From NCBI GenBank assembly GCA_040390125.1, contig JAZJYZ010000001.1, positions 163,698-227,697 of the forward strand: DNA of 64,000 nucleotides, written 5' to 3'. Below, one piece after another: positions 6,792 through 56,411 of the stretch (position 1 is the stretch's first letter; every line of letters begins with the position of its first letter). The position numbers were made by a program, and so were the translations under genes. The notes beneath the pieces were generated by a model. That model ran no database searches and was not told the DNA's origin. It saw only the letters and a program-made list of their open reading frames with translations. The DNA comes from Patescibacteria group bacterium. Lineage in GTDB: Bacteria > Patescibacteriota > Minisyncoccia > Phycocordibacterales > Phycocordibacteraceae.

Positions 6792-7274
6792 ATGAGGTGT
6801 CAGCTTTCAGCTTTCAGCTTTCAGGCGACGCCTCGTCGGATCCGAAGGGATCATAGGAGGAAAGAAAGCTTTTCGCGAGGGATGACACTTATTGAAGTAG
6901 TCGTCGCCGTCTCTTTGATGCTTATAATTTTCTTGGGATTTTTTGGTGCCTATGTGGCGTCTGCTGACTTGGTGCGGAGCACTTCTGCCCGAAGTGGAGC
7001 TCTCTTTCTTATGGCAAACAGAATGGAATACATAAGGGGGTTGGCGTATGGCTCTATAGGTACTGTGGGTGGAACGCCGTCAGGAAGTCTTGTGGCTAGT
7101 GAGCCAAGGATTTTGAATGGTATTACTTACACCATTCGTACAACGGTTGCATACATTGATGACGGAGCGAATGGTGCCGGTGCCGGCGATTATAAAACAG
7201 TGAAAGTTGAAGCAGATTGGAATTTTAGAAATGTCTCACAAAGTATCTCTACTGTTACCTATGTCGCACCGTAA
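6792..7274 (+). CDS. Type IV pilin / pseudopilin with a prepilin-type N-terminal methylation motif (SRG|MTLIEVVVAV); true start uncertain
   Basis: Class III signal hallmark G followed by xTLIE with E at +5 and a hydrophobic helix. The only in-frame ATG upstream gives a 30-aa leader overlapping the AGCTTTCAG repeats; ATG at 6882 would give no leader. Confidence 0.75.
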   Translation: MRCQLSAFSFQATPRRIRRDHRRKESFSRGMTLIEVVVAVSLMLIIFLGFFGAYVASADLVRSTSARSGALFLMANRMEYIRGLAYGSIGTVGGTPSGSLVASEPRILNGITYTIRTTVAYIDDGANGAGAGDYKTVKVEADWNFRNVSQSISTVTYVAP

Positions 7275-7857
7275 AAACAGCACTACACGTGGCATGACCT
7301 TAGTTGAAGTCTTGATGACAGTTGCGGTTGTTGCAGTGGTTATGGTGAGTGCGTCTGATGCAGTGCTCTCGCTCTATCGGGCAAATTCCACAGGGACACG
7401 CGGAGTGTCGCAGGTCGGAAGTGCGAGGCACGCACTAGATGCATTGATGGAAGAGCTTCGCCAAAGCTCGTATGGTAACGATGGGTCTTATCCAATTGTT
7501 TCGATTGCCACTTCTTCGATTACTTTTTTTAGTGCTATTCCAAATAGTTCAAGTGCCATGCGAGTTCAGTATCAACTTTCAAGCACAACACTAAATCGAA
7601 GTACGGTGAGCCCAGGTACTCCGCCAACATACACAAGCGCCCCGGTCACCTCGGTTGCCACCGCATACAGTAACAATGTTGCTATGGGTATTCCTATTTT
7701 TCGCTATTACGATAAAAATGGTTTAGAAATTACTGACATGACTCGGACTACTGATGTTCGGTCTGTATCGATTGCAATTAGTATTCTCAATCCTGGGATG
7801 ACTACTCCGTTTATGCTGACTGCAACAACGACGTTGCGTAATTTGAGAGGAATATGA
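7261..7857 (+). CDS. Second pilin/pseudopilin (leader MSHRKNSTTRG | MTLVEVLMTVAVVAVV)
   Basis: Prepilin motif with E at +5; the ORF track starts earlier at TTG 7207, and ATG 7261 gives an 11-aa basic leader. Confidence 0.75.
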   Translation: MSHRKNSTTRGMTLVEVLMTVAVVAVVMVSASDAVLSLYRANSTGTRGVSQVGSARHALDALMEELRQSSYGNDGSYPIVSIATSSITFFSAIPNSSSAMRVQYQLSSTTLNRSTVSPGTPPTYTSAPVTSVATAYSNNVAMGIPIFRYYDKNGLEITDMTRTTDVRSVSIAISILNPGMTTPFMLTATTTLRNLRGI

Positions 7858-9104
7858 AGAATCTACCTCAGGTTCCAGCTTTCAGGTTCCAGCTTTCAGC
7901 TACAGGCAACAGAAGGGTGCGGGGGTTTTTGACGATTTTTGTACTCGTTGCTTCCTCCGTGTTTTTATTTTTACTCTCTGAGCTTATGGGCTCACTGACG
8001 TTAGAGCGTTTAGGGGGAACAATAGAGGCCGACAGTGAAAAAGCTTTTCATATAGCCGAAGCCGGGCTTGAGTACTATCGTTGGCACTTTGCAGAGTTTC
8101 CAGGTGATCTACAAGACGGTACTGCAAGTGCGGGGCCCTATGAGCATGATGTAGCGGATCCAGAAACTAGTAACACAATTGGAACATTTTCTCTTGATAT
8201 CTCAGGCATAACTTCATGCGGTGTACTCACATCCGCCACAGTGAACTCAACTGGTTCCATGGCTAGTAGCTCAACACACCGAACTACGTTGATTGCTGAA
8301 TATGGAAAACCCACACTTTCCGCATCAACGAGTCCGGCGAAGTCCGATGCTACAGCAATTGCAACATCGCTCCCAAGTTTGAAGACGTACGCACAGTCGT
8401 CAGGCGTTTACATTGCGACATCCACAGGGTATGGATACAAAATTGTTTTCAAATCGAACGGAACATTTGATGCGTCGCCCGTTACTGGTGTCACGGAGGT
8501 ATGGGGGTATTCAACGGATGATGGGTGGCAACAAGAGGATACGATTATTTCTACAACAGGTGTTGCGGTGAACCATACTGTGCCTTCCGAATGTCCGGTG
8601 GTATTTGTTGAAGATACTGTCTGGCTTCAAGGCACTGTTTCGGGCAAAGTTACGTTAGTTTCCGCAAATATAACAAACGCTGGCGTCGATCCGAATATTG
8701 TACTTACCGGAAACATTACGTACGCCCACGCATACGATGATGGTTTTACGGCGATTGCTGAAGATTCAGTACTGATATCACTAGATTCTCCTGACGTCAT
8801 GCAACTCTCAGGAATCTATGTAGCCAGCAAGGGTCACTTTGGGCGGCATCGCTATGATGCATCCGGCACTCACGCTGTTCCCGTAAGCCTTCAGTCGTCA
8901 GTGCTCCGCTCCACCCTCAACACATTTGGGACATTTGCTTCAATGGAGACAGTTGATACTAAATGGCTCTCTTCCGGTGCGTTTATTTCAGGCTATAGCA
9001 CAAGGACTGATGTCCATGATCCTTTCTTAGGAAAGCTACCTCCGCCGTTCACTCCGGTTACTTCAAATGACTTCCGTTTCACAGACTGGAGAATACAGGA
9101 GTAG
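7854..9104 (+). CDS. PilX-like minor pilin / pilus-associated protein (N-terminal TM helix, then an AFHIAEAGLEY motif typical of the PilX N domain)
   Basis: TM helix LTIFVLVASSVFLFLL followed by an A.AEAG motif; a GTG at 7917 is an alternative start, because the first 60 nt are AGCTTTCAG repeats. Confidence 0.6.
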   Translation: MKNLPQVPAFRFQLSATGNRRVRGFLTIFVLVASSVFLFLLSELMGSLTLERLGGTIEADSEKAFHIAEAGLEYYRWHFAEFPGDLQDGTASAGPYEHDVADPETSNTIGTFSLDISGITSCGVLTSATVNSTGSMASSSTHRTTLIAEYGKPTLSASTSPAKSDATAIATSLPSLKTYAQSSGVYIATSTGYGYKIVFKSNGTFDASPVTGVTEVWGYSTDDGWQQEDTIISTTGVAVNHTVPSECPVVFVEDTVWLQGTVSGKVTLVSANITNAGVDPNIVLTGNITYAHAYDDGFTAIAEDSVLISLDSPDVMQLSGIYVASKGHFGRHRYDASGTHAVPVSLQSSVLRSTLNTFGTFASMETVDTKWLSSGAFISGYSTRTDVHDPFLGKLPPPFTPVTSNDFRFTDWRIQE

Positions 9105-9163
9105 TTGTTAGTGAACAGTGGACAGTGTTTAGGGAAAAGAAACAGCACTATTTTTGAATTCTT

Positions 9164-9733
9164 TTAGCGAGTACTTCTTAGTTTTTCTATAACTTTCACA
9201 ACCAAATCTTTTGGGTTCGTGTCATATGCTATCACTGCACCATGATCAGTCGGACATACTTTCATAATGTCTCTGATTTTGTCACTGACTCCGCCCGACC
9301 CTTCGAGTACGCCAATTACTTTACCTTCGTAGTTTGCAATGCAAAATTCTTCTAGCGTTCCAGTTTCACCACCGATGAAGATAGCCCCATCGCAATTGCG
9401 GATATTCAAATAGTTTCTTCCCGTGTATCCGCTTCCAGTCCACATAATTACCGAAGCTCCATCGAGAGGTCTCTCATACCTTTCTACATGCTCCCTAGGA
9501 TCATGTGCTGGTGAAATTCCCAATACAAACCCTCCTTTTTTAATCGCTGTTTTCCCTGCAATACCTGGCAAGCCTGCAGTGGCACCTGTAACTACTATTG
9601 CCTCGCACTCGATGATTGTTTCGCCGATTATAGCCGCCTGTTGTTCAGAATCTTTATTCCAAGTGAAAGCGCCCCCGAACACACCGATTCGTAGAGTCTT
9701 TTCGCTCAAAGAGTGTATTGAGTTACTTTTCAT
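9164..9733 (-). CDS. TIGR00725/LOG-family Rossmann-fold protein (SLOG / lysine-decarboxylase-like)
   Basis: IGVFGG...VVTGATAGLPGIAGKTAIKKGGFVLGISP pattern. Confidence 0.7.
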   Translation of the reverse strand: MKSNSIHSLSEKTLRIGVFGGAFTWNKDSEQQAAIIGETIIECEAIVVTGATAGLPGIAGKTAIKKGGFVLGISPAHDPREHVERYERPLDGASVIMWTGSGYTGRNYLNIRNCDGAIFIGGETGTLEEFCIANYEGKVIGVLEGSGGVSDKIRDIMKVCPTDHGAVIAYDTNPKDLVVKVIEKLRSTR

Positions 9734-10685
9734 GTCTTTTGTTTAGTTTCTTATTTTTGGTCGACTGGAGTGATTTTTGTGTTTCTTCAATGAGAACCGC
9801 ATTTTCTTCAATTTCCTTCATGGTTCTGTTGCCTACGACAATGGCACTCACCCCAGACTCTTTGAGTATGTGTTCGAAAGCCGACCTTCTGAGTCCTTTT
9901 GGTGAAGTATTTTTTTCTAGCAATACCAAAACCTTCTTCAAAACTTGCTCGACCTTGCCTCTGTTATGTTGTAGGTTCCATTTCCAATAATCGTCAATAA
10001 GAGGTAGGTCTTCTATTTTCTTAAAGTTTCCCGTGAGGTAGCCTCTTTTTAATGGGCCTCCAACGAGAACTCCTATGCCGTATTCTTCGGCTTCTTTAAT
10101 AGCCTCTTTGCACTCAGTATCAATTAAATTGTACTGAAGCATGATGACATCAATGTCTTGCGTCAGAGCCGCTCTCACGTGTTCTGGTTCATTTTCAAAG
10201 CTGTACCCAATAGCTTTAACCAAACCTAATGCTTGGAGTGTTTTAGCGACAGCGATAGCCTTGCCATTTTTAACTTTTTCCAATGACGGTGCATGAATGA
10301 GTAGTATGTCGACATAATCCGTTTGGAGACGTCTCAAGCTTTGTTTGAATTGATCAACGATTCGTTCTGGTTCGAAATTGCTTCGGTGTGAATATTCATC
10401 GAATTGCCCAAGCTTGAGGCAATAAAATACCTCACTGCGTTTGTTTTTAAATGCTTTGCCCAATAACTCTTGGGCACGGCTCTGCAAATAGCCACGCTCG
10501 TCTTTATATTGTCCATAGACTACAGCGGCATCGAAAATATTGATGCCGAGTTTTTGTGCTGCTTGCAGGATCTCAATATTCTCTTTCTCAGAATTTGAAT
10601 GCCATCTGCCACCGCCTATCTGCCAGACACCAAAACCCAAGAGGGAAACGTCAAAACCTGTATTGCCGAGTTTTCTATAAAGCAT
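9723..10685 (-). CDS. Aldo/keto reductase family oxidoreductase
   Basis: N-terminal LGNTGFDVSLLGFGVWQIGG motif, then the AKR barrel. Confidence 0.85.
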   Translation of the reverse strand: MLYRKLGNTGFDVSLLGFGVWQIGGGRWHSNSEKENIEILQAAQKLGINIFDAAVVYGQYKDERGYLQSRAQELLGKAFKNKRSEVFYCLKLGQFDEYSHRSNFEPERIVDQFKQSLRRLQTDYVDILLIHAPSLEKVKNGKAIAVAKTLQALGLVKAIGYSFENEPEHVRAALTQDIDVIMLQYNLIDTECKEAIKEAEEYGIGVLVGGPLKRGYLTGNFKKIEDLPLIDDYWKWNLQHNRGKVEQVLKKVLVLLEKNTSPKGLRRSAFEHILKESGVSAIVVGNRTMKEIEENAVLIEETQKSLQSTKNKKLNKRHEK

Positions 10686-10831
10686 GCTTAGTATTATTGA
10701 CTTGAGTTGAGAAAGTTGTCAAAATATAAATGACATATCTTGAAAATAACTATATTTATATTGAATAAAATAGCTTAAAACTGTTGTTATTTATTTGACA
10801 AAAATATTCAATTCAGCTTAACTGTTCGTAT

Positions 10832-11611
10832 ATGAAGGAGATAGATGAGCTATTACGTGATTTCGGTTTGTCCTCAAAAGAAATCCAAGTCTTGATGGCT
10901 GTTTTTCAAGCAGGCAAAATATCTCCGGCAGCTATTGCAAAACTGACAAAACTTAAAAGACCCACGGTGTATGTTCTTGCAAAAGAGCTCGCAAAACGGG
11001 GGTTTCTTCTGGAGGACACTACAGGAAAGACTATCAATTATCTTCCTACACAGCCTGAATATTTGTCTGAAGTTATCGAACGGGAACATTCAGTTCTTGC
11101 TGAAAAGGAGCGAATCATCAAAAATATTACCGAAAGCTTAAAAAGCTTACCTCGATCTTCCACCTACGCAGTACCAAAGATTCGTTTCGTTGAAGGAGAG
11201 AAGGAGGTCGAGCAGTTTCTGTACCGTCAGATTCCTGAGTGGTTTGCGAGTATGGAGGTAGCTCATACCAGAACGTGGTGGGGGTTTCAAGATAGCTCCT
11301 TCGTTCAATCGGCTCGCTATCGCAAGTGGATAGAGTGGCACTGGAAACAGATGCCAAATGACTTTGACCTTAGATTACTTTCTAATATTTCAGACACAGA
11401 AACCGCCATGCAAGGGAAAATCAGCGAACGACGGAGAATACGCTTCTGGGAAGATGCTGATTTTACAGCCACTCAGTGGTTTATGGGTGAATACTCAGTG
11501 ATGATAATGACATCTGCTACACCGCATTATCTTGTCGAGACGAAAGATGCGGTGTATGCAAGAAATATGCGTGCATTATTCAAACATTTATGGCAGGAAG
11601 TTTCAAAATAA
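10832..11611 (+). CDS. TrmB/MarR-like winged-helix transcriptional regulator
   Basis: N-terminal HTH region LSSKEIQVLMAVFQAGKISPAAIAKLTKLKRPTVYVLAKELAKRGFL. Confidence 0.65.
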   Translation: MKEIDELLRDFGLSSKEIQVLMAVFQAGKISPAAIAKLTKLKRPTVYVLAKELAKRGFLLEDTTGKTINYLPTQPEYLSEVIEREHSVLAEKERIIKNITESLKSLPRSSTYAVPKIRFVEGEKEVEQFLYRQIPEWFASMEVAHTRTWWGFQDSSFVQSARYRKWIEWHWKQMPNDFDLRLLSNISDTETAMQGKISERRRIRFWEDADFTATQWFMGEYSVMIMTSATPHYLVETKDAVYARNMRALFKHLWQEVSK

Positions 11612-11731
11612 GTGCAGAAGGACTGAAGCCCGACAGCTGACCCCCACGGGGACTGAGATTTATAGCCAATCGTTGAACTCTTGGACAAATCGGGAGCCTG
11701 CAAGCTTCTGTGTTAGGATTTCTGCATGAAT

Positions 11732-11846
11732 CCCGTTAGAAATTGCGAATGCGAAACAGATAGAAATGGACTGCTGAGGTCGATGTTTAGTATTTTAAAT
11801 ATAGGTAGGTGCGAGGCACAGGCATTCGCATTCTATTTCTAACGGG
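11732..11846. repeat. Long imperfect inverted repeat (21-25-nt arms cccgttagaaattgcgaatgc / gcattcgcattctatttctaacggg) enclosing about 70 nt; it ends exactly at the tpiA start codon
   Basis: Arms are reverse complements with one 4-nt bulge. Confidence 0.55.
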
Positions 11847-12599
11847 ATGAAAAAACTCATCGTCGGTAACTGGAAACTGTATGTGAATACTCCTGCTGAA
11901 GGCAAAAAGCTCATTCGTGACATTGATAAGAAACTGCCCCGTGGACTCAAAGTGGAAGTAGCACTATGTCCGCAAGTGTCGCTCGCACCTCTTTTGAAGA
12001 GTGAGTATAAAGGGAAACGAATGTCTTTTGGTACGCAGGATGTTTTTTTCGAAGGGGGTGGAGCTCATACGGGGCAGACGTCTCCAAAAGCTCTTGTCGC
12101 ATCTGGAATTAAGTATGTAATTGTGGGGCACGCAGAAAGAAGAGCAGAGGGGGACACTGATGAAATTGTTGCAAAAAAAGCAGTCACGGCAATTAAGGCA
12201 AAATTGCACCCAATCGTGTGTGTTGGTGAACCATCTCGTGACTCTGAGGGTGTGTATTTAACATATCTTGCGAACAGCGTGATTTCTTCACTCGCTCGTA
12301 TTGAAGCTACGGACGCTTCAAAATTTACTATTGCGTATGACCCACTGTGGGCCATTGGTGCCCCGCTCGCTCCATCGCCTCGCATTGTTGCGGAGGCGGT
12401 TATGTTCATCAGAAAAACTATTGCAGATATGTGGGGACGAGAACGTGCGCTGAAAGTTCGTATTATTTATGGAGGCTCAGTCAATGCAGAAAGTGCTGCA
12501 TTGTTTGCAGCAACTCCTGGTATACAAGGCCTTCTTCCGGGACGTGCAAGTGTTGACGCAGAAGAATTTACAGGAATCATTCGGGCTTTCAATTCGTAA
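11847..12599 (+). CDS. tpiA: Triosephosphate isomerase
   Basis: 250-aa ORF that reads as triosephosphate isomerase; directly upstream of pgk, the usual glycolytic pairing. Confidence 0.93.
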   Translation: MKKLIVGNWKLYVNTPAEGKKLIRDIDKKLPRGLKVEVALCPQVSLAPLLKSEYKGKRMSFGTQDVFFEGGGAHTGQTSPKALVASGIKYVIVGHAERRAEGDTDEIVAKKAVTAIKAKLHPIVCVGEPSRDSEGVYLTYLANSVISSLARIEATDASKFTIAYDPLWAIGAPLAPSPRIVAEAVMFIRKTIADMWGRERALKVRIIYGGSVNAESAALFAATPGIQGLLPGRASVDAEEFTGIIRAFNS

Positions 12600-12612
12600 A
12601 TCCAATTTGTTC

Positions 12613-13725
12613 ATGCACTCTATTGAAACAGTAACGAATTTGAGTGGTGTGCGAGTACTCGTGCGTTGTTCCTATGATGTGCCGGTAAAGGATGAAGTCG
12701 TTGTCGATACCATCCGACTGGACAACGGTTTACAGACGGTGGAGTATTTAATACGTAAAGGTGCACGTATTATTCTCATTGGGCACATTGGGCGAGATCC
12801 AAAAAATTCTTTGAAGCCCGTGTATGAATATCTGAAACAAAAAATAAATCTTACATTCGTTGATGATATTACTGGCGATGTAGCGCACAGGGCAGTTGAA
12901 GCTCTTGAGGACGGCGGAGTACTGTTGCTCGAGAATTTGCGTCGTGACCCTGGTGAGAAAGGTAATGATGAAAATTTCGCTCATTCGCTTGCATCTCTTG
13001 CGGACATATACGTGGATGATGCATTTACAAATGCACATCGCCATCATGCGTCCATGGTGGGAGTGACGAAGTTGTTGCCTTCGTATGCAGGATTTCAGTT
13101 TCTTGCTGAGGTGGAAGGGTTGAAGTCAGCTCTTGCCCCTTCGAGCCCGTCTCTAGCAATCGTAGGCGGAGCAAAATTTGAAACTAAAGTAGTATTGGTA
13201 CATACGCTTTTAGAAAAATACGACTTTGTGTTTGTAGGTGGTGCGGTTGTAAATGATTTTTTTGTCGCAAAAGGATACAGCGTAGGTAAGTCGCTTGTTT
13301 CAAAAACGCCGGTGGACAAGGACATTTTACAGAGTCCAAAAATACTTCTTCCAGAAATAGTAACAGTTGAGGGCTCAGGTGGTCGACGTGATGTATTGGT
13401 GCGTGATGTTCTAGAGGACGACGTTATTTTAGATATTGCTCCCGCATCTATTTTGGCACTCCAGCCAACTATTAATTCGGCACGCTCTATTTTATGGAAC
13501 GGTCCGATGGGTAATTTTGAAAAAGGATTTACTGCAGGGACTGACGCACTTGCCATTGCTATTGCTGGGTCGTCCGCAAAATCCATTGTTGGTGGCGGGG
13601 ACACCCTTTCCTCAATTCAAAATCTTGGGCTCATGGATAAATTTACGTTCGTTTCAACAGCGGGGGGCGCCATGCTCGACTTTCTTGCAAACGGCACGTT
13701 GCCGGGGATTGAAGCGCTTGACTAG
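12613..13725 (+). CDS. pgk: Phosphoglycerate kinase (start at ATG 12613 or TTG 12607; the track ORF begins earlier inside tpiA)
   Basis: PGK N- and C-domain sequence; gene order tpiA-pgk. Confidence 0.92.
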   Translation: MHSIETVTNLSGVRVLVRCSYDVPVKDEVVVDTIRLDNGLQTVEYLIRKGARIILIGHIGRDPKNSLKPVYEYLKQKINLTFVDDITGDVAHRAVEALEDGGVLLLENLRRDPGEKGNDENFAHSLASLADIYVDDAFTNAHRHHASMVGVTKLLPSYAGFQFLAEVEGLKSALAPSSPSLAIVGGAKFETKVVLVHTLLEKYDFVFVGGAVVNDFFVAKGYSVGKSLVSKTPVDKDILQSPKILLPEIVTVEGSGGRRDVLVRDVLEDDVILDIAPASILALQPTINSARSILWNGPMGNFEKGFTAGTDALAIAIAGSSAKSIVGGGDTLSSIQNLGLMDKFTFVSTAGGAMLDFLANGTLPGIEALD

Positions 13726-13781
13726 GCTTAATTGTTGTAGTTCTATAGACTAAATACATAGTTAATTTTTAATCAAAGAAT

Positions 13782-14030
13782 ATGCCTGGACCTCGTTTGG
13801 AACGTTTTTTATTAAAGCTTGTACCACGAAGAAGCTTAGAAAGGGAATCAGATAGACTGTACGGTTTAGTATATAAGCATGCAGCGTTTGAGCACCATGA
13901 CGCTCGATTAAAGATAGTGGATGACGAGATTGGGGATCGTAATTTTAAAAAATACGGAACCAGGGTGCACCTTGAACCAAGACGTAAACCGGTAAGACTA
14001 GGAAAACCAAAGAAAGGATGGTTTGGTTAG
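13782..14030 (+). CDS. Hypothetical basic 82-aa ORF
   Basis: ORF only. Confidence 0.2.
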   Translation: MPGPRLERFLLKLVPRRSLERESDRLYGLVYKHAAFEHHDARLKIVDDEIGDRNFKKYGTRVHLEPRRKPVRLGKPKKGWFG

Positions 14031-14091
14031 TTTAAAAAAGAGATCCCCCCTAAACACTAGATGATTCCTGCGGATCCGATGAAACTGGTCC

Positions 14092-14520
14092 CTACGGACA
14101 CGACGAAGCGTCGCCTAAACCCTGCTTAATTTTCTCCGCCACTTCTTTTGCTCCTCCTTCTTTATATTCAGTTCCTATCCACGGCTTATGGGGGTCTCCT
14201 TCAATGCGGGGGATGATGTGCATGTGTGCATGAAATACTAGCTGATGTGCGGCAGGTTCGTTGTTCATTGTTATGTTAATGCCGTCTGCTCCGACGGCAT
14301 TTTTTATGACGGGTGCAAGATAGTACACTGTTTTCATTACTTCTAGCCAAACACTTTCCGGCATGTCCAGCATATTTCTATAATGAACTTTTGGAACTAC
14401 GAGTGTGTGGCCTGCATTATTAGGACGGATATCAAGAAATGCGAACGTATGCTCGTTTTCAAATAGCATTTCTGCCGGGATTTCTTTGGCAATTATTTTA
14501 CAAAATAGACAATCAGTCAT
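14092..14520 (-). CDS. HIT-family (histidine triad) nucleotide hydrolase
   Basis: HAHMHIIP histidine triad motif. Confidence 0.9.
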   Translation of the reverse strand: MTDCLFCKIIAKEIPAEMLFENEHTFAFLDIRPNNAGHTLVVPKVHYRNMLDMPESVWLEVMKTVYYLAPVIKNAVGADGINITMNNEPAAHQLVFHAHMHIIPRIEGDPHKPWIGTEYKEGGAKEVAEKIKQGLGDASSCP

Positions 14521-14623
14521 AGGTTAGGTGTCAGCTGCCAGCTTTCAGGTTCCAGCTTCTCTTAATTCAAAGCTGAAAGCTGGAACCTGAAAGCTTCCTC
14601 TCTAAAATGTTACCATGTCCTAA

Positions 14624-16309: not shown

Positions 16310-16315
16310 ATCTCT

Positions 16316-17023
16316 ATGAAAAAAGTTATACATCGAAGTGATGAGCGAGGGAGAGGAGAATACGGCTGGCTTACTACTCGCTACAGTTTTAGTTTTGCAG
16401 ATTGGCATGAGCCGACACGTATGGGTTTTGGCGCACTTCGAGTTATTAACGACGACGTGATTTCAGCAAGCTCCGGTTTTGGTATGCACCATCATCGAGA
16501 TATGGAAATAATTACTATAGTCACTAAAGGTACGGTGACCCATAAAGACAGTATGGGAAACGTCGGGGCAGTTCCCGCAGGTGACGTGCAGGTTATGTCG
16601 GCGGGAACTGGTGTTACTCACTCCGAATATAATGACTCGAAAGAAGAAGTGCTTTCTTTATTTCAAATATGGATACAGCCAAAAGAGTTTGGTATTAAAC
16701 CCAAGTACGCTCAAAAATCTTTTAATCTTGCTGAAGTAAAGAATGGACTGACACTTCTTGTTGCACCTATTGGAATGGGAGATGGTTTGCCTATCAATCA
16801 GGACGCATATATTTCGTATGCAGTGTTGGACAAAAATACTCCGTGCAACTACACGTTGAGAGAGAAAGGTAATGGTGTGTATCTCTTTGTGGTGAACGGC
16901 GATGTCACTTTTGACGGGGAAATTCTAAACTCAAGGGATGCCGTGGGTGTGTCGGGTGCAGATGAGTTGCTGATGACCTCTTCTCTTTCAGCACGAGTAC
17001 TTGTTATTGAGGCTCCTGTCTAA
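16316..17023 (+). CDS. Pirin-family cupin protein
   Basis: GFGMHHHRDMEIITIV motif (pirin HPHRGFE-like). Confidence 0.82.
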   Translation: MKKVIHRSDERGRGEYGWLTTRYSFSFADWHEPTRMGFGALRVINDDVISASSGFGMHHHRDMEIITIVTKGTVTHKDSMGNVGAVPAGDVQVMSAGTGVTHSEYNDSKEEVLSLFQIWIQPKEFGIKPKYAQKSFNLAEVKNGLTLLVAPIGMGDGLPINQDAYISYAVLDKNTPCNYTLREKGNGVYLFVVNGDVTFDGEILNSRDAVGVSGADELLMTSSLSARVLVIEAPV

Positions 17024-17052
17024 AAGGTTTTTTGAAAATTGGTCTAACGTAT

Positions 17053-17328
17053 CTATATTCTTCCGCTTCCACCACAGGTGGAACATTTTCTGTATGCCCA
17101 TCTTTTTTGTGGGACTCGAAATCTACCCGCTAGTTCAGTTTTCCAATACCCTAACCTCTTTTGTCCCTTGCACACTGGACACTTCTGCTTTCTTTTTTCG
17201 GGTGGACGAGAACCCGCAGTTTTTGATCCGATCATGGGGTCAAGTTTCACATCGGGATAGTTTTCTTTTCGCGCCTTCAGTCTTTCTTGACGTTTTTCTC
17301 TGGGTCTTTCTATCCGGTTCCTTGACAT
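17053..17328 (-). CDS. Hypothetical small basic zinc-ribbon protein (CPVCKG ... CSTCGG)
   Basis: Two CxxC pairs; lysine/arginine-rich. Confidence 0.35.
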   Translation of the reverse strand: MSRNRIERPREKRQERLKARKENYPDVKLDPMIGSKTAGSRPPEKRKQKCPVCKGQKRLGYWKTELAGRFRVPQKRWAYRKCSTCGGSGRI

Positions 17329-17437
17329 ATTCTTATTGTATTCAATATATAATTTTTTATAAATATGTCAAAAAAGCATCTCCTGAATTCAACCTCTCCC
17401 TGCGTATCTACATTCAAGCGTAGGATACAATACCCCA

Positions 17438-20016: not shown

Positions 20017-20193
20017 ATGAATTAGTGATCAGTGTACAGGGTTCAGTGTTTAGAGAAAAATCTTCTGAGTGGCTATTTGGGCCTTGGGAGCATTATATCA
20101 TTGTGGGTGTGGCGAGAATCCCAGTGAGCAGACTTTTGGTGTTACGACGCTTCGTATGGAAATATTTAAATTTTAAAGCGAATAGCTATTTGA

Positions 20194-21621: not shown

Positions 21622-21677
21622 AGTTTTTAGAGGATACCATGGAGGGATTCAAGATTCAAGAATTTAAAAGCTAGCAC

Positions 21678-22400
21678 CTAGAAGCTAGAACCTTTTTCAA
21701 GGTATGCAACAATCGTGCGACGCTTCCATGCAGAGCCGTCAGCATGCTTGTGCTTGAATGATTTTTCGATCTTGTGAATGGTGAAATAGGGCTCGAAGAA
21801 CCCTCGTACTGACTCTTCTGTCCACACATACTCAGCAGTGTGTATTTCTGGATGAATATACATGCCCATCTCATCTCCCGGGCTTTCACGAAGCAGGCGT
21901 TTTGCATGGGAATCATCGTCAAGGAGAAATGATTTGAAAAAGAGCCACCCACCTGGTTTTAAAACACGAAGAATTTCTTGTCGGAGATTTTCACGCCCGG
22001 CTTGTTTCAAGACATGCGAGCTCATCATGTCGAGTGCGATGGTAACGGAATTGTCAGGCAAAGGAATTGGTTTTTCCATGTCTTGTACAAAAAATTTGAT
22101 AGGCAATCCTTCGCCAGCTTTTTTAGCAACAGTGATGGCGACTTCTGAAAGATCGTACCCAACACCACGCATGCCGAATGCATTTGCAAGGTAAATGAGG
22201 TTACGTCCGTTACCACATCCAACGTCGAGCGCTTGTGCCGTAACGTTCAGAAATTTCTTTCCATGTTCACGTATTAAATAGCGTGAGAATTTTTCAAGAT
22301 CTTCCGAAGGCTCGGTCGAGAGTGCAAGATGAGGATTTGCCCCACCGGTGCGGTTTGATTTACCGTATTCCTTATTCCAGAAATTGTTTTGTTTGGACAT
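21678..22400 (-). CDS. Class I SAM-dependent methyltransferase
   Basis: LDVGCGNGRNLIYLA motif I. Confidence 0.8.
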   Translation of the reverse strand: MSKQNNFWNKEYGKSNRTGGANPHLALSTEPSEDLEKFSRYLIREHGKKFLNVTAQALDVGCGNGRNLIYLANAFGMRGVGYDLSEVAITVAKKAGEGLPIKFFVQDMEKPIPLPDNSVTIALDMMSSHVLKQAGRENLRQEILRVLKPGGWLFFKSFLLDDDSHAKRLLRESPGDEMGMYIHPEIHTAEYVWTEESVRGFFEPYFTIHKIEKSFKHKHADGSAWKRRTIVAYLEKGSSF

Positions 22401-22460
22401 ACAGGTAGCTGTCAGCTTTCAGGTGTCAGCTTTCAGCTTTAAATCTAGAACTTCATAATT

Positions 22461-23201: not shown

Positions 23202-23395
23202 ATTTTTTAGCTTTCAGCTGTTAGCTTACCGCCTAGCGAGGTGAGAGGAAAGCGAATTCTTGCTTTCCCGAGGGAGCGACGGCGGAAAACCCTTTTAGGG
23301 TTTATAAGCTTATAGCTTTAAACAGCAAAGTTTCAAAAGACTTTCTTCTCCTCCCTGAAAGCTGTAAGCTATAACCTGAAAGCTGGTAGTTCAAT

Positions 23396-28031: not shown

Positions 28032-28722
28032 AAATCCTTAAAGTGTTTTTGATTGTTTTTTATGGCACACGGTTTTAGAGAGGGAACTTCTGCTGTTAAC
28101 ACTACGTGCCCTTTTTGTTTAAAAACTATTATGGTCATTAGAGATGGCCTTAGGAGGAAGATATTGCCACATTTCTCCACGAATACGAAGGGTGCTACTG
28201 AAGGTTGCGAGGGTAACGGGCGTGCAATCGAGGATTCGGATTAGTATTCCACAACACTCCGAACATTCTCTTGCGTAGTGAAACTAAGCGGAATACTATA
28301 GGTCTTATATGGAGGGTAGTACCCATCGGTTAGTGAGCTTTGGTAGGTCTTTTGTTGTAAGCAAAGGAGCAGATGTGAAACATAGGGGGATGAAGCGCCT
28401 TCCAGAAGACAGAAGCGTGCAAGGCCAGGATGGCTCAGCAGACAGGCATAATCGTACTCGTTTGAGGGGAAAGCGGGTTCGTTTCGATCCGAACGCACCA
28501 TTCCCAACTTTGATGTAATTGTGCTTGAAATTCGAACCTGATTCTTGACTCTTTTTAAGCTTTCAGATACAGTACCCCGTAACGCTTCACGCGTTCTTTT
28601 CGTCTACGATTCCTGGTTGTGCGGGCTTTCGGAGCGAAGCAAGGGCTCGGTGGTTTTTCTTAGCTCTTTGATTTAGAATTTACTAGTCCCTATACACTAA
28701 ACACTAATCACTAATTTATAAT

Positions 28723-29919
28723 ATGGTAGATTTCGCACGCACTAAGCCTCACGTCAACGTCGGTACTATCGGCCACGTCGACCACGGCAAGACTACCCTC
28801 ACTGCGGCTATCCTTTCCGTTCTTGCAAAGGCAGGAAATGGATACAGCGCATCAGTGAAGGACGTCGCTCAGATCGACAATGCACCTGAAGAAAAGGCTC
28901 GTGGTATTACCATCTCCCTTTCGCACTCCGAGTACGAATCACCAGCTCGCCACTACGCACACATCGATGCTCCTGGCCACGCTGACTACATCAAGAACAT
29001 GATTACTGGTGCCGCCCAAATGGACGGTGCAATTCTCGTTGTTGCTGCAACGGACGGTGTGATGCCTCAAACGCGTGAACACATTCTCCTCGCTAAGCAA
29101 GTTGGTGTACCAAAGGTCATTGTTTTCTTGAACAAGGTTGACATGGTTGACGATAAAGACCTCGTTGAGCTCGTTGAAGAAGAAGTTCGTGAGCTCCTCA
29201 CCAAGCAAGGCTTTGATGGTGCTGCAACTCCGGTTATCCGTGGTTCAGGCTTGAAGGCTCTTGAGAATCCAGCACCAGGCAACGAATGGTCTGAGAAGAT
29301 CATGGAGCTTGTAAAGGCACTCGATGATTACATTCCACAGCCAGAGAGAGACGTTTCTAAGCCATTCCTTATGCCAATTGAGGACATTTTCTCGATTGAA
29401 GGACGTGGCACCGTGGTTACTGGCCGTATTGAGCGTGGTCAGATAAAAGTAGGTGAAGAAGTTGAAATTGTCGGCCTCCAGCCAACAGTTAAGACCACTA
29501 TCACTGGTATTGAAATGTTCAACAAGTCCTTGCAAGAAGGTATGGCAGGCGACAACGCAGGCATCTTGCTCCGTGGTACGAAGAAAGAAGACGTACACCG
29601 TGGACAAGTTCTCGGAAAGACTGGCACCGTTACTCCGCACACTGACTTTGAAGCAGAAGTCTACATTCTCTCAAAGGAAGAAGGAGGTCGTCACACACCG
29701 TTCTTTACAGGCTACAAGCCACAGTTCTACGTCCGCACTACTGACGTCACTGGCGATGTAACCTTGCCTGAAGGAGTTGAAATGGTTATGCCAGGAGATA
29801 CCGTGAAGTTTAAAGTGAAACTTGTAGCACCAGTTGCCCTTGAAGAACAACAGCGCTTTGCTATCCGTGAAGGAGGTAAGACTGTCGGTGCTGGCGTGGT
29901 AACGAAGATAGTTGCGTAA
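28723..29919 (+). CDS. tuf: Elongation factor Tu
   Basis: [10 protein letters not shown] and DAPGHADY motifs; 398 aa. Confidence 0.97.
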
Positions 29920-30016
29920 ATTAGAACGTAGAAAGTTGTAGGTAGAATGTAGAAAACATTTCAGCAAAGAAAGTTCTTTAAAAAACTACATACTACCTGC
30001 TACTTACTACCCACTT

Positions 30017-31666: not shown

Positions 31667-32347
31667 ATGAAAGCATCTATATACAACACAAGTGCAAAAG
31701 AAGTAGGGGAAATCGAACTCCCAGATAGCATTTTCGGTGTAAAGCGAAATGATGCCTTGGTGCATCAGGTTGTTCTTGCCATGCAGGCAAACGCTCGCAC
31801 ACCAGTGGCTCACACGAAGGGTCGTGGTGAAGTACGAGGAGGAGGTAAGAAGCCATGGAAGCAAAAAGGCACTGGACGAGCTCGTCATGGTTCTATTCGT
31901 TCTCCTATTTGGAGAGGAGGAGGCACCACACATGGTCCTGTAAAGGAACGTGATTTCTCGCAGAAGATAAATAAGAAGATGCGCGCAAAAGCAGTTGCAA
32001 CAGTTCTTTCAGAAAAACTCCGCAAAGGAAAAATGATTTTTGTTGACTCGCTTTCCTTCAAGGCTCCAAAGACAAAAGATGCAAAGGCAACCCTCGGAGG
32101 TCTTGCTAAGATTGCAGGATTTGCAGAGCTTGCTACCCGAAGAAATAATGCAGCGCTCATTCTTCTTTCGAAGCATGATGTTGCTGCAGTAAAGAGTTTC
32201 CGCAACATGAAGAATGTGATGGTTGATGAAGCAAGAAATGCAAACCCTGTTGACTTGCTTACCTACCGATATATCCTCATTGTAGATCCACAGGTTGCTG
32301 TTAAAACCCTCTCATCCCGCCTTTCTGATATTAAAGCTAAAAGCTAA
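31667..32347 (+). CDS. rplD: 50S ribosomal protein L4 (start at ATG 31667; C-terminus ...IKAKS encoded by AAAGCTAAAAGC repeats)
   Basis: 227-aa ORF reading as L4 (RGEVRGGGKKPWKQKGTGRARHGS... central region); position between rplC and rplW. Confidence 0.9.
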   Translation: MKASIYNTSAKEVGEIELPDSIFGVKRNDALVHQVVLAMQANARTPVAHTKGRGEVRGGGKKPWKQKGTGRARHGSIRSPIWRGGGTTHGPVKERDFSQKINKKMRAKAVATVLSEKLRKGKMIFVDSLSFKAPKTKDAKATLGGLAKIAGFAELATRRNNAALILLSKHDVAAVKSFRNMKNVMVDEARNANPVDLLTYRYILIVDPQVAVKTLSSRLSDIKAKS

Positions 32348-32374
32348 AAGCTATAACCTAAAAGCTGACTATAT

Positions 32375-32782
32375 ATGGCACTTTTCAACACAAAAAAGAA
32401 TACGAAGAAGGCGAAGGAATCGATTCCAGAATCGAAGTCTGTTCTCCCTGAAAGCTCTAAGCCAAAAGCCAAAAGCTCTTCTGAACGTCCTTCTGCTCTC
32501 GCTGAGTATGCCAATGTTTTGGTACGCCCTCGCATTACCGAGAAAGCAGCAAACATGACCGCACAAGGTGTGTATACATTTGATATTCGCAAGACCGCAA
32601 CAAAGAAGGATGTTGCTAAGGCGGTACACGCACTCTACAAAGTGATGCCAATTAAAGTGAATGTCGTAAATACACCAGCAAAACGTGTGCAGATGAGAAA
32701 GAAGCGTGGTTTTGGTAAGACTGCTGCATCAAGAAAAGCTCTTGTATTTTTAAAGAAAGGTGACACTATCCGTTTCTCATAA
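32375..32782 (+). CDS. rplW: 50S ribosomal protein L23 with a roughly 40-aa K/S/P-rich N-terminal extension
   Basis: L23 core VLVRPRITEKA...; position between rplD and rplB. Confidence 0.88.
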   Translation: MALFNTKKNTKKAKESIPESKSVLPESSKPKAKSSSERPSALAEYANVLVRPRITEKAANMTAQGVYTFDIRKTATKKDVAKAVHALYKVMPIKVNVVNTPAKRVQMRKKRGFGKTAASRKALVFLKKGDTIRFS

Positions 32783-36926: not shown

Positions 36927-36945
36927 AGTGTGGTAGCCTAAATTG

Positions 36946-40810: not shown

Positions 40811-40860
40811 TTAGGCTTAGAGCTTCTAGCTTTCAGCTTTTAGGGAGGAAAAACAAAAAT

Positions 40861-44003: not shown

Positions 44004-44184
44004 TTTGACCTCTTAGTTCGTTTCTGCTATCCTAGCAATAGCTTTTCGAAGCGCTTTTTCTTTACCCTTCAACTTCGTTCAGGGTGAAAGGCCTCTTCCC
44101 GAAAGGGTGAGGTACGGAAAAGGGCTCTAAAAGGCGAATACCCTTCATCTCAGCACAGGCTGAATGAATACGGTTCCCTAAAAA

Positions 44185-45444: not shown

Positions 45445-45801
45445 ATGTCTAAACTCACTCCAAAAACTCAATCAGCACTTCGCGCTCGCAGACACCGCCG
45501 TATTCGTGGAAAGGTGAAGGGTACTGCTACCTGTCCACGCCTTGCGATTTTTCGCTCAAACAAATATTTCTACGCTCAGCTCATTGATGACGACAAGCAG
45601 GTGACTCTTGCGAGCGCTTCATCTATGGATGTGAAGGGTAAGTCAATGATGGAAGATGCAAAAATTGTTGGTGAGCGTGTTGCGAAAGCGGGTATCGAAA
45701 AAGGCGTTAAGAAAGTAGTCTTTGATCGTGGAGGCTTTACGTACACAGGACGTGTGCGTGCACTTGCCGAAGCTGCACGAGCCGGAGGTCTTGAATTTTA
45801 G
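45445..45801 (+). CDS. rplR: 50S ribosomal protein L18
   Basis: L18 sequence; operon position. Confidence 0.9.
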
Positions 45802-45834
45802 TGAACAGTGTACAGTGAATAGTAAATAACAATT

Positions 45835-46471: not shown

Positions 46472-46999
46472 ATGGAACTCCACACACTTACACGCACAAA
46501 GAGTAACAAAGCAACCCGCCGTGTTGGCCGTGGAGGTAAGCGTGGCAAGACGTCTGGCCGTGGTTCAAAGGGTCAGAAGTCACGTGCTGGTGCAAAATTT
46601 CGTCCTGAATGGCGTGACATCATCAAAAAAATTCCAAAGCGACGTGGATACGGCAGAAACCGTTCTCGAACAGCCGTGCCACGCATCCGTTTTGCAACCG
46701 TGAATTTTGATACTCTCTCGAGACAGTTCAAGGCGGGGGACATCATTACTCCGATTGCATTGGTTAAGGCTGGAGCTGTACGCCGTATTTCTGGCAAAGT
46801 TCCTCCGATAAAGATTCTTGCTCGAGGAGAGATCAGCATGAAGCTCGCTTTTGAGGACGTTCTCATTTCAGAAGTAGCTAAGACACTAATTGAAAAAGCT
46901 GGTGGCACTGTCCGTGCTCCTATTTCAAAGAAGGTACTGCCTTCTAAAAAAGACACTTCTCCTAAAAAAGCTGCTTCCTCCCTAAAAGCTAAAAGCTAA
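46472..46999 (+). CDS. rplO: 50S ribosomal protein L15, directly after rpsE (no L30 gene), with a K/S-rich C-terminal tail
   Basis: MELHTLTRTKSNKATRRVGRGGKRGKTSGRG... Confidence 0.9.
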   Translation: MELHTLTRTKSNKATRRVGRGGKRGKTSGRGSKGQKSRAGAKFRPEWRDIIKKIPKRRGYGRNRSRTAVPRIRFATVNFDTLSRQFKAGDIITPIALVKAGAVRRISGKVPPIKILARGEISMKLAFEDVLISEVAKTLIEKAGGTVRAPISKKVLPSKKDTSPKKAASSLKAKS

Positions 47000-47011
47000 A
47001 AGCTGGTTACT

Positions 47012-48283: not shown

Positions 48284-48336
48284 AATCAAAGCTGTCAGCT
48301 TCCGGCTGTCAGCTTACAGCTTTAAATAGCAAAAGC

Positions 48337-51683: not shown

Positions 51684-51749
51684 ATGGCAAAAGGAAATCA
51701 CTCGCAGAAAAAAGAGATGAAGAAGCCGAAGAAAGATAAGAAGAAGTAA
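51684..51749 (+). CDS. Unlisted 21-aa lysine-rich micro-ORF MAKGNHSQKKEMKKPKKDKKK, followed by a strong terminator
   Basis: Manual translation; terminator aaaaggcaccc gta gggtgcctttt at 51755-51780. Confidence 0.25.
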   Translation: MAKGNHSQKKEMKKPKKDKKK

Positions 51750-55265: not shown

Positions 55266-55391
55266 GCGACGCTTCGTCGGATCCGTAGGGATCACTTAGT
55301 GTTTATAGAAACTTCTTATAATTTCTGAGCTCGCCCTCCCCTAAACACTAAACGCTAGCCCCTAACCCCTCTTAGTGGTATAGTCGCTTCA

Positions 55392-56003
55392 ATGAATACA
55401 GATGCAAAATTTGAGAATGAGCGCACGCTAGTCATATTGAAGCCTGACGCTGTGCAACGCTCTCTCGTGGGCGAGATAATGAAGCGTATTGAAAGGACGG
55501 GACTAAAGTTTGTGGCCTTCAAGTTTGGTATCGCTACGGAAGATCAACTTGTTCGTCACTACAATAAGGACGAAAAGTGGTTTCTTGAGAAAGGAACTCG
55601 AATATTGAATGACCGAACCACCCATAACTTGCCAATAGAGAAGGATGCGCTTGGGTACGGTAAAGAAATAATAGATTCAATAGTGAAATTCATGACTGCA
55701 GGTCCTGTATTAATGATGGTGATTGAAGGAAATGAGTCAGTAGCCGTTGTGAAGAAGCTTGTGGGTGCCACAGAGCCAAAGACATCGGATGTCGGGACTA
55801 TTCGAGGTGACTACACTGTGGATTCGTATGACCACTCATCGGTACAGAGTCGTGCCGTCAGAAACCTCGTCCACTGCTCTGAATCTCCTGAAGAAGCATC
55901 ACGTGAAATTGCCGTGTGGTTTAAGCCCGAAGAAATTTTGAAATATCGTATCGTTCAGGAGCAGATCCTCTACGATGTGAACCTTGACGGGATAATGGAG
56001 TAG
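55392..56003 (+). CDS. ndk: Nucleoside diphosphate kinase (with an internal insertion)
   Basis: LVILKPDAVQR..., ...NLVHCSESPEEASREIAVWF. Confidence 0.88.
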   Translation: MNTDAKFENERTLVILKPDAVQRSLVGEIMKRIERTGLKFVAFKFGIATEDQLVRHYNKDEKWFLEKGTRILNDRTTHNLPIEKDALGYGKEIIDSIVKFMTAGPVLMMVIEGNESVAVVKKLVGATEPKTSDVGTIRGDYTVDSYDHSSVQSRAVRNLVHCSESPEEASREIAVWFKPEEILKYRIVQEQILYDVNLDGIME

Positions 56004-56041
56004 CTTCCAGCTTCCAGCTTCCAGCTTCCAGAGAAAATTGT

Positions 56042-56350
56042 ATGTTTTTAGGAAGGCAAGATGATGCAGTAACAGTAGCCCCTGAGGTACATTCTGTTGT
56101 ATTTGAGAATGAAAAAATTAGAGTTTTAGATGTTGTTGTTCCTGTGGGTTATAAAAGTGGATTGCATTGGCATCCCCAGAATATGGGATATGTTCTCACT
56201 CCGGGCACTTTGCGGTTCACTTTGCCTGATGGGGCAGTAAAAGATGTAGTGTTGTCTCTGAATCAGGTTACACAAGGGGAAGGTGCACATATCGTTGAAA
56301 ATATAGGCACTGAGACCGTAAGAGTGATGCAAATTGAATTCAAGAATTAA
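56042..56350 (+). CDS. Small cupin-domain protein
   Basis: GLHWHPQN...GEGAHIVEN cupin motifs. Confidence 0.65.
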   Translation: MFLGRQDDAVTVAPEVHSVVFENEKIRVLDVVVPVGYKSGLHWHPQNMGYVLTPGTLRFTLPDGAVKDVVLSLNQVTQGEGAHIVENIGTETVRVMQIEFKN

Positions 56351-56411
56351 AGTTTTTTAAGCTGGAACCTGACAGCTGGCACCTGAAAGCTGAAAGGCAT
56401 GGTACGCTTTT

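Follow-up and report, generated by a model that had tools for sequence, protein, structure and literature searches.

Short tandem arrays of seven-nucleotide units occupy a tenth of the intergenic DNA in a 64,000-nucleotide (nt) stretch of a Patescibacteria genome (GenBank assembly GCA_040390125.1, contig JAZJYZ010000001.1, positions 163,698 to 227,697; the whole stretch is called the window here). These arrays belong to the class of heptanucleotide simple sequence repeats (SSRs) and short tandemly repeated repetitive (STRR) sequences: their units are tandem and 7 or 14 nt long, and the arrays are intergenic, dispersed and variable from locus to locus. The explanation that we favour, and to which we give roughly an even chance of being correct, is that they are microsatellites of the STRR or long-SSR class, born by slippage and filtered by selection acting on the mRNA of a host that lacks Shine-Dalgarno (SD) sequences. 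An earlier note on this DNA had drawn attention to overrepresented words in the spacers, which are real, while missing both their 7-nt period and the known heptamer-repeat class.

The window contains 17 copies of the word AGCTTTCAG or its complement where chance would give 0.92, an 18-fold excess, and none of 100 shuffled sequences reached 17 copies. The copies are non-coding in 16 of 17 cases, and all 17 lie inside or adjoining tandem arrays. Every coordinate block that the earlier note gave for this word holds copies, although two were left off its list, at 28558 (tuf upstream region) and 32448 (minus strand). The other families that it described (CACTAAA/GTGTTTAG, CTTTCTACCTTCCA and GTGAACAGTG) were found, as was the likeness of the tuf and rplT leaders, which have CACTAAACACTAATC[A/C]CTAATTT in common. 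Tandem Repeats Finder returned about 45 short arrays in the window, mostly of period 7 or 14 and with 2-5.4 copies, and a scan of periods 4 to 16 gave enrichment over shuffles at 7 and 14 only. With an array threshold of 11 matches in 14 positions, 28 arrays were detected compared with 1.8 in shuffles; the frame-breaking periods 4, 5, 8, 10, 11 and 13 gave 0-5 arrays each. Autocorrelation of the intergenic DNA peaks at lags 7, 14 and 21 (0.307, 0.294 and 0.278, against a baseline of ~0.265), and coding DNA shows the 3-nt codon period only.

The gene map used to place the arrays was curated from close-relative homology, independent gene calls and Pfam. On this map 25 of the 28 arrays fall mainly between genes, where they take up 826 of 8255 nt (10%), and the remaining 3 are mostly in coding sequence. 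An array is present in 20 of the 48 spacers of at least 25 nt. Arrays often open in or just past a stop codon and close 0-20 nt ahead of the next start; 15 of 24 lie within 20 nt of a start codon, with a median distance of 10.5 nt, and of the 13 arrays in spacers of 100 nt or more, 8 fall within 30 nt of the start where random placement would give 4.7 (P = 0.03). They lie, as had been claimed, in intergenic spacers and 5′ leaders, and are found within the type IV pilus operon and the ribosomal-protein operons str, S10 and spc, between rpmI and rplT, and before tuf, ndk, recJ, sod and other genes. They are listed below by window coordinates, with slashes separating unit variants and z giving the folding score relative to shuffles.

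1022..1055, minus strand: ACAGTTT/ACAGCTA, in the sense CTGTAAA/CTGTTAG; occupies the 38-nt nusA-ppa spacer, 1 nt from the ppa start.
3176..3208, no strand assigned: orphan CCAAAAG, three copies, within a 425-nt divergent spacer.
3688..3719, plus strand: CCACTAAACCCTAG, two copies, 31 nt 5′ of pilB and 3′ of an intrinsic terminator.
5481..5504, plus strand: GTAGAAN, three copies, overlapping the pilB stop; 5′ arm of a hairpin.
5521..5569, plus strand: CTTTCTACCTTCCA, three copies, 8 nt 5′ of pilC; 3′ arm of the hairpin (z = -2.4).
6797..6826, plus strand: TCAGCTT, 3.6 copies, beginning right after the pilC stop, with a REP-like element (described below) directly 3′.
7865..7904, plus strand: TCAGGTTCCAGCTT, 2.3 copies, past the second pilin-like gene's stop; where the next gene starts is uncertain.
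9106..9135, plus strand: GTGAACA/GTGGACA/GTGTTTA, at a convergent junction, at the 3′ ends of both genes.
14526..14559, minus strand: TCAGCTG/CCAGCTT/TCAGGTT, in the sense AAGCTGG/AACCTGA, 6 nt 5′ of the HIT-family gene; inverted-repeat arm with a perfect 19-nt core.
14567..14597, plus strand: AAAGCTG/GAACCTG, 27 nt 5′ of recJ; partner arm of the HIT/recJ inverted repeat (hairpin z = -4.65).
20022..20058, minus strand: in the sense CTAAACA, CTGAACC, CTGTACA and CTGATCA, 6 nt 5′ of the superoxide dismutase gene.
21665..21695, no strand assigned: AAGCTAG/CACCTAG, at a convergent junction, overlapping the ends of both genes.
22405..22442, minus strand: TGTCAGCTTTCAGG, two copies, in the sense AAGCTGA; fills the spoU-methyltransferase spacer, 5 nt from the start.
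23205..23232, minus strand: TTAGCTT/TCAGCTG, in the sense AAGCTAA/CAGCTGA, 4 nt 5′ of spoU.
23351..23388, plus strand: CTGAAAG/CTGTAAG/CTATAAC, 8 nt 5′ of the M50 peptidase gene; inverted relative to 23205-23232.
28687..28716, plus strand: CACTAAA/CACTAAT, 7 nt 5′ of tuf, G-free.
29918..29955, plus strand: GTAGAAA/GTAGGTA, opening at the tuf stop; 5′ arm of a hairpin.
29983..30015, plus strand: ACTACAT/ACTACCT/GCTACTT, 8 nt 5′ of the rpsJ ATG at 30023; 3′ arm of the hairpin (z = -3.1).
32328..32368, plus strand: AAAGCTA, 4.9 copies, spanning the rplD stop, 7 nt 5′ of rplW.
32452..32479, plus strand: AAGCCAA, 2.6 copies, one of the three mostly coding arrays, in the K/S-rich N-terminal extension of L23.
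40815..40843, plus strand: AGCTTCT/AGCTTTC/AGCTTTT, in the rplX-rplE spacer.
45799..45828, plus strand: GTGAACA/GTGTACA/GTGAATA, in the rplR-rpsE spacer, absent in relatives (z = +1.9).
46979..47007, plus strand: CTAAAAG, 3.3 copies, spanning the rplO stop, 4 nt 5′ of secY; kept in the relatives L081 and L082 (z = +2.0).
48288..48323, plus strand: GCTGTCAGCTTNCG, 2.5 copies, in the secY-gmk spacer.
55338..55370, plus strand: CCCTAAA/CACTAAA/CGCTAGC, 22 nt 5′ of ndk, just 5′ of a TGGTATAGT box.
55999..56034, plus strand: CCAGCTT, 4.3 copies, at the ndk stop.
56358..56396, plus strand: AAGCTGG/AACCTGA/CAGCTGG, inverted relative to 55999-56034, ~320 nt away.
58665..58703, minus strand: in the sense CCCTAAA, CACTATC, CACTAAA, CACTAAT and CCCTAAT; fills the rpmI-rplT spacer (predicted minimum free energy 0 kcal/mol).

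An assembly artefact is excluded, because an independent Logan assembly contig of the same genome (L086) is 100% identical over window positions 832-17685 (16.9 kb), ten arrays included, and because genomes from other studies also bear arrays at matching junctions. An exact search with a TrmB-like protein led to L086, and exact searches with L18, SecY and EF-Tu led to no contig. No Rfam covariance model matched an array at the gathering or E-value threshold; the weak hits on arrays are due to chance, and only the transfer-messenger RNA gene passes. That gene lies at 61494-61900 on the minus strand (RF00023, 103.7 bits) and was missed by ARAGORN.

Judging from its EF-Tu and SecY sequences, the host is a Patescibacteria (Parcubacteria/Paceibacteria) bacterium with a genome of ~0.75 Mb; its EF-Tu is 82% identical to those of Kaiserbacteria, Adlerbacteria and other Patescibacteria metagenome-assembled genomes, and its SecY is 100% identical to one encoded on a 749-kb Patescibacteria contig. 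A cyanobacterial origin was ruled out by the absence of HIP1, the absence of STRR units in tandem and the placement of EF-Tu and SecY in Patescibacteria. The SD motifs GGAG, GAGG and AGGA were found at -20 to -4 of 5 of the 76 starts, below the 12% background, and the context of these starts from -13 to -1 is rich in A/T, G making up 7-17% and T reaching 59% in position -1. The window and the loci retrieved for comparison contain no rRNA gene. Shine-Dalgarno pairing is not used by this host, whether an array is present or not. The repeats do stand where an SD sequence would, as the earlier note observed, and its further suggestion that they take over the role of SD fails: arrays cannot replace SD because some three quarters of the genes without SD also lack an array, and because relatives with 87-94% SecY identity manage at array-free orthologous junctions with spacers of 6-9 nt. 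Canonical intrinsic terminators are present in the window and are distinct from the heptamer arrays.

Other signals were seen near starts. Boxes resembling TATAnT (TGGTATAGT, TACAAT, TTATACT, CTATAG) stand 4-9 nt ahead of the start codons of ndk (55375-55391), a 174-aa gene at 51814, the DUF8128 gene at 52383 and the RNase J gene at 56656, and are kept in relatives; their sequence and position suggest leaderless or very-short-leader mRNAs. The rpsN (S14) leader at 44025-44184, which opens with TGCTATCCTAGCAATAGC, is kept in all four relatives compared and is probably an internal promoter together with a ribosomal-protein leader.

Three unit families make up ~25 of 27 arrays: an AGCT family (TCAGCTT, CCAGCTT, TCAGGTT, AAAGCTA and complements), a CACT/AGTG family (CACTAAA, CCCTAAA, GTGAACA, GTGTTTA) and a GTAG/CTAC family (GTAGAAA, CTTTCTACCTTCCA, ACTACCT). 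In the window the sense strand reads CTR (R, purine) in 15 of 19 start-proximal arrays, for example as AAGCTGA, CACTAAA, CTAAAAG or TTTCTAC, and all five arrays found at stops only read YAG (Y, pyrimidine), which recurs every 7 nt in TCAGCTT, GTAGAAA and ACAGTGN arrays. Start-proximal arrays contain 3 start codons on the sense strand and 21 on the antisense strand. Having a stop in every frame is not specific to one orientation in the window (7 versus 11). Replication was rejected as the cause of the orientation bias, the plus strand holding ~13 YAG and ~11 CTR arrays, and a G-poor or A-rich sense strand was rejected as the rule since it accounts for fewer arrays than CTR/YAG. Folding separates the arrays into two classes. 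Direct arrays without a partner show no more folding than shuffles, several of them less (z from ~0 to +2.0; -0.08 for the tuf leader and +0.05 for rplX-rplE). Facing arms, with YAG after a stop and CTR before the next start, give hairpins with about one mismatch per 7 nt, and the z of inverted-pair hairpins ranges from -2.4 to -7.2.

Inverted pairs might also act in DNA, with the arrays serving as operators, roadblocks, nucleoid-protein sites or promoter-spacing (UP-like) elements and the pairs as dimer sites or cruciforms. The perfect 19-bp inverted repeat in the HIT/recJ divergent spacer, the inverted arms on both sides of the spoU/M50 divergent spacer and the position of the ndk array just 5′ of a TGGTATAGT box are in keeping with this, as is the strand symmetry of the TCAGC...GCTGA arm order described below, and a preprint on Nostoc reports that heptamer repeats affect NtcA and LexA binding and the expression of recF and recO. 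However, most arrays lie between ribosomal-protein genes inside operons or against starts, outside the -40 to -60 region, promoter-like matches are no commoner than in shuffles (19 versus 27), and the arrays are dispensable in relatives, so that a DNA-level role appears unlikely. By definition an UP element occupies -40 to -60 of a promoter and is rich in A/T. The UP-like role put forward by the earlier note does not agree with arrays that lie inside operons or 3′ of promoter-like sites; the tuf array, for example, abuts the ATG ~140 nt downstream of the only promoter-like site, TTGACT-17-TACAGT.

The corresponding loci of four relatives (SecY identity 94, 93, 87 and 81%) were aligned junction by junction. 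A comparison with related genomes had been proposed as a check on the repeats, and it shows arrays at matching junctions, but with units, copy numbers and presence that vary. The rplX-rplE spacer is 50 nt long with its array in the window versus 6-9 nt in three relatives, and the rplR-rpsE array is found in the window only. At secY-gmk an array is present in four genomes with different units, while the CCAGCTT array at the ndk stop has 4.3 copies in the window versus 6.3 in L081, and the rpmI-rplT array has 5 units versus 3 in relatives. Distant Patescibacteria (L003, L006, L009, L019, L022 and L042) carry heptamer arrays of other units directly 5′ of tuf, two of them as inverted pairs. The array syndrome is group-wide, and individual arrays turn over fast. 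Copy-number change, gain and loss among relatives mean that no single array is essential and, judged from the array-free junctions of the relatives, no individual array seems to be needed for expression. The copy-number differences between species are consistent with slippage.

Variable copy number is also what contingency (phase-variation) loci would show, where it switches the expression of the adjacent gene. Some of the arrays stand beside type IV pilus genes, and SSRs in 5′ untranslated regions can drive phase variation (PMC12721329). The neighbours are nevertheless mostly housekeeping genes (ribosomal proteins, tuf, secY, ndk, recJ), and a 7-nt change in an untranslated spacer gives no frameshift, which makes phase variation very unlikely.

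A Y1 transposase gene related to IS200 and to REP-associated tyrosine transposases (RAYTs; REP, repetitive extragenic palindromic) is located between rplB and rpsS in the ribosomal-protein operon (36943-37638, plus strand). It is in the same place in L081-L083 and on the opposite strand in L085. An identical palindrome, TGTGCAACCTCCGGAGGTTGCACA, flanks it at 36900-36923 and 37657-37680 and has only these two copies; relatives have a hairpin of different sequence. A REP-like element of ~35 nt, GGCGACGCTTCGTCGGATCCGTAGGGATCA, with two small hairpins, is found at 6826-6860, 40452-40486 and 55269-55300 (plus strand), with weaker forms near 14063 and 14087 (minus strand). YAG always stands 5′ of this element, a heptamer array often adjoins it, and L081 and L082 lack it in their rplN-rplX spacer. 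The arrays could accordingly be thought of as REPIN-type non-autonomous mobile elements (REPIN, paired REP sequences) spread by the Y1 enzyme. In favour of this are the inverted pairs with fixed polarity, the window-specific insertions relative to L081 and L082 (~43 nt in rplX-rplE and the 35-nt REP-like element in rplN-rplX), the conserved Y1_Tnp gene between hairpins and the constant YAG 5′ of the REP-like element. Against it, the two Y1-flanking hairpins are unrelated to the heptamer units and their palindrome matches no dispersed array element in the window, copy number and unit mix differ per locus with no common element boundaries visible, the change in copy number between orthologous arrays resembles slippage, and many genomes have heptamer arrays to which no gene of this type has been linked. 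We regard mobilization by this enzyme as quite unlikely.

If the arrays are instead microsatellites filtered by selection on SD-less mRNA, slipped-strand mispairing would create and resize them, and since 7 is not divisible by 3 they would be retained only outside coding frames. Those in the S10/spc operon are transcribed by virtue of their position, and arrays outside operons probably are as well. Selection on mRNA leaders and intercistronic spacers would then decide which units and orientations persist. On the start side the survivor would be the CTGA/CTAA reading, which offers no AUG, GUG or UUG, folds weakly and often includes UGA or UAA; three copies of a stop-bearing unit would place a stop in each frame, and the array, in front of an SD-less start, would do no harm, stay unstructured and act as insulation. 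Where a complementary YAG array follows the preceding stop, a periodically mismatched stop-to-start hairpin would result, which could couple or gate downstream translation or mark a site of mRNA processing or stability.

The same repeats occur outside the phylum. Exact (TCAGCTT)3 is present in at least 120 metagenome contigs, with a GC content of 38-70% (median 0.58) among the matches listed, and in 33 IMG/VR viral contigs. One metagenome contig is Candidatus Methylomirabilis (NC10), with a PilB ~90% identical, and in it (TCAGCNN)n-loop-(NNGCTGA)n directly adjoins an ATG. Among the viral contigs is a true tailed phage, with portal, capsid, protease and terminase genes and paired arms at many gene junctions. 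Four IMG/VR loci (L213, L229, L215 and L221; GC ~0.6) have 12-22 arrays per 12-14 kb at many gene junctions, often as inverted pairs with the second arm against the ATG and no Shine-Dalgarno sequence, and the phage contig L221 has at least five different units. Arms at most 100 nt apart are, among the matches listed, in the order TCAGC...GCTGA in 86 cases and in the reverse order in 3; this polarity is strand-symmetric, and transcription direction or hairpin formation alone does not explain it. Flanks of such pairs coincide with the start of an open reading frame (ORF) in 44 of 160 cases among the matches listed (median 3 nt) compared with 18 of 160 random positions. Inverted pairs of units other than GCTGA have TGA or TAA in the 3′ arm by 7:0 raw, or 6:0 with the window/L086 duplicate counted once, from few pairs. 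Threefold arrays of three composition-matched control heptamers were found at 5-17 viral loci and those of TAACTGA at 107; TCAGCTT is 2-6-fold above the controls, and because the controls form arrays too, any heptamer can. An orientation test on metagenome and viral contigs (34:6 for the GCTGA reading before ORF starts, among the matches listed) was withdrawn, since its rule for ORF starts asks for a stop in frame further upstream, and GCTGA arrays contain such stops. The metagenome parts of the all-frame-stop and start-codon tests share this bias and are not relied on.

Such a distribution could point to recognition of the repeats in RNA, the arrays being sites for an oligomeric, heptad-reading RNA-binding protein (HutP-, TRAP-, cold-shock- or S1-like) and together a global post-transcriptional regulon for initiation or antitermination. 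By analogy with such proteins this is a real possibility, although we would not call it probable. It would account for the few dominant unit families, for one unit shared across phyla and phages, for the 86:3 polarity and for the fixed start-proximal orientation in the window and in Beggiatoa. There is a precedent for heptad-spaced triplets in HutP, and S1, Csp or CsrA have been put forward as readers of the TAACTGA repeats (MacGregor 2015, PMC4679880). Yet close relatives differ by gain and loss of arrays even at junctions of essential ribosomal-protein genes, a single genome and indeed a single phage (L221) contains several unrelated units, arbitrary heptamers form arrays too, the array-bearing genes have no common function, and no candidate binder is found among the window genes: domains of HutP, TRAP, CSD and Hfq are all missing from these 64 kb of a genome of ~749 kb. 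A broader and doubtful proposal is that the arrays are a cross-phylum cis-element of SD-independent expression, in which heptad CUGA/CUAA would be read directly by a universal part of the expression machinery, such as the ribosome or S1, or by an RNA chaperone, and would load or reload ribosomes at starts, with the nearly constant 5′-(UCAGCNN)n-loop-(NNGCUGA)n-3′, present in this host, in an NC10 bacterium and in phages, as a stop-to-start coupling device. If true, it would give the widespread 7-nt intergenic periodicity a function.

DNA uptake signals are words of 9-12 nt that are spread as isolated copies across coding and non-coding DNA at ~1 per kb and are lineage-specific. The proposal that AGCTTTCAG is such a signal for the type IV pilus and competence machinery drew on the PilB, PilC and pilin-like genes at 3750-9104 and on the 18-fold overrepresentation of the 9-mer. 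It is contradicted by the confinement of the word to tandem arrays, by its almost wholly non-coding copies, by unrelated heptamers that behave alike and by the presence of the array in Methylomirabilis, in phages and, among the matches listed, in contigs of 38-70% GC, and we find it hardly credible.

Several observations weigh against the account that we prefer, that of slippage and selection on SD-less mRNA. Slippage with frame selection leaves the exclusive period of 7 unexplained, as periods of 4, 5, 8, 10 and 11 are equally frame-breaking yet absent. The small number of families, the unit found across phyla and the polarity of its arms point to spread by copy-and-paste or to recognition of particular sequences. 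The orientation and start-codon rules for the window were set post hoc, after inspection of the data, and a flank-based test on single arrays outside the phylum gave no orientation preference (49:48 and 42:52 among the matches listed). In addition, structure in array-bearing leaders is not significantly lower than in other leaders (P = 0.2).

Other features of the surrounding genes were noted. The S10/spc operon encodes, between rplB and the Y1 gene, a 1047-aa protein (33728-36871, plus strand) with weak PKD/CARDB hits, kept in L081-L083. Shikimate kinase and threonine synthase genes (41639-43466, plus strand) lie between rplE and rpsN in this genome only; in relatives a spacer of 170-350 nt separates rplE from rpsN. 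The block GCGAGCACCCACCTGGAGCTTCGGCTCTAAGGTTAATACTCCGTCAGTGACCC at 56516-56568, in the 652 nt between ndk and RNase J and without a match in Rfam, is kept in L081 and L083 5′ of RNase J and may be a leader or a small RNA; a 102-codon ORF at 56042-56350 lacks conservation and is unlikely to be a gene. A tiny basic ORF, MAKGNHSQKKEMKKPKKDKKK, at 51684-51749 (plus strand) is followed by a terminator hairpin and has the counterpart MAKGETHRKDKKKPKKDKKK in L081 and L082.

For annotation, the arrays should be treated as ordinary microsatellites and not as uptake signals or promoters. They can also mislead start-codon calling, for example in the pilin-like genes, whose starts are ambiguous (6792-6884 and 7854-7920). 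The prepilin cleavage motifs G|MTLIE and G|FLTIF require an upstream leader, and every leader that could begin with ATG reads through a heptamer array, and for the first gene through the REP-like element as well; an independent gene caller placed these starts at 6882 and 7854. The window adds to the known heptamer repeats a very small SD-less Patescibacteria genome with a tenth of its intergenic DNA in arrays, inside essential operons, and its close relatives offer array-bearing and array-free forms of one junction as a compact natural test set. Specialists may be drawn to the arm order of 86:3 among the matches listed and to phages with such pairs at many gene junctions. The heptamer class is already known; what appears to be new is the Patescibacteria host and these units. 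The literature searched held no report of heptamer repeats in the candidate phyla radiation or Patescibacteria, and queries with the unit sequence gave unrelated primer matches only.

Tandem heptamers are the most abundant intergenic periodic repeat in a survey of 7,006 genomes, which found "no clear clue" to their function (bioRxiv 10.1101/309039). The STRR heptamers of Calothrix and Nostoc have slippage as their suggested origin and no known function (PMC4679880, PMC4692102), and for the long SSRs of Mrazek et al. (2007), as that work is cited by others, the ~7 nt touching the polymerase were proposed to favour slippage (PMC4692102, PMC4679880). The window arrays resemble both in their 7-nt units, several families per genome, intergenic position and many dispersed loci, but CCCCAGT, TTGGTCA and CAACAGT are not tandem in the window and HIP1 is absent. 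The GGGAATC/GGGGAYT repeats of Xanthomonas and Nostoc stand at the same gene junctions in related species while length and sequence vary widely (Rehm 2015, PMC4692102). They are likewise intergenic and sometimes paired in inverted orientation, and the scan used here detects them at Lysobacterales/Dokdonella tuf loci; they differ in being G-rich and able to form G-quadruplexes, whereas the window units are not G-rich. REP/REPIN-RAYT systems share short intergenic inverted pairs, fixed polarity, mRNA hairpins and the presence of a Y1 transposase gene, but REPs are single imperfect palindromes and not tandem heptamers. In Bacillus leader RNAs HutP reads XAG plus 4 nt with heptad spacing (U498, U505, U512), three per face, and the YAG-reading arrays match the form of HutP and TRAP sites, a triplet repeated each 7 nt in an mRNA leader. 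The comparison is one of mechanism only, since HutP has 3+3 motifs, a single operon and a known protein, and the window has dozens of loci and both readings.

The closest described case is that of the TAACTGA repeats of marine Beggiatoaceae, also found in some cyanobacteria and Bacteroidetes, which stand just 5′ of starts without a ribosome-binding site (MacGregor 2015, PMC4679880); in Beggiatoa 147 sets are oriented forward toward starts and 12 toward stops (PMC4679880). TAACTGA itself has no copy in the window and its complement one; only the CTGA/CTAA core is shared. The window further differs in its three families without a dominant unit, its frequent period-14 units, its different phylum, and its many post-stop arrays in the opposite reading and several inverted pairs, of which BOGUAY had one. 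Otherwise the likeness is extensive: in both cases 2-6 tandem heptamers, nearly all intergenic, usually stand in one orientation a few nt 5′ of the starts of genes without a ribosome-binding site, ribosomal-protein operons included, with related 7-mers interspersed and the CTGA core toward the start.

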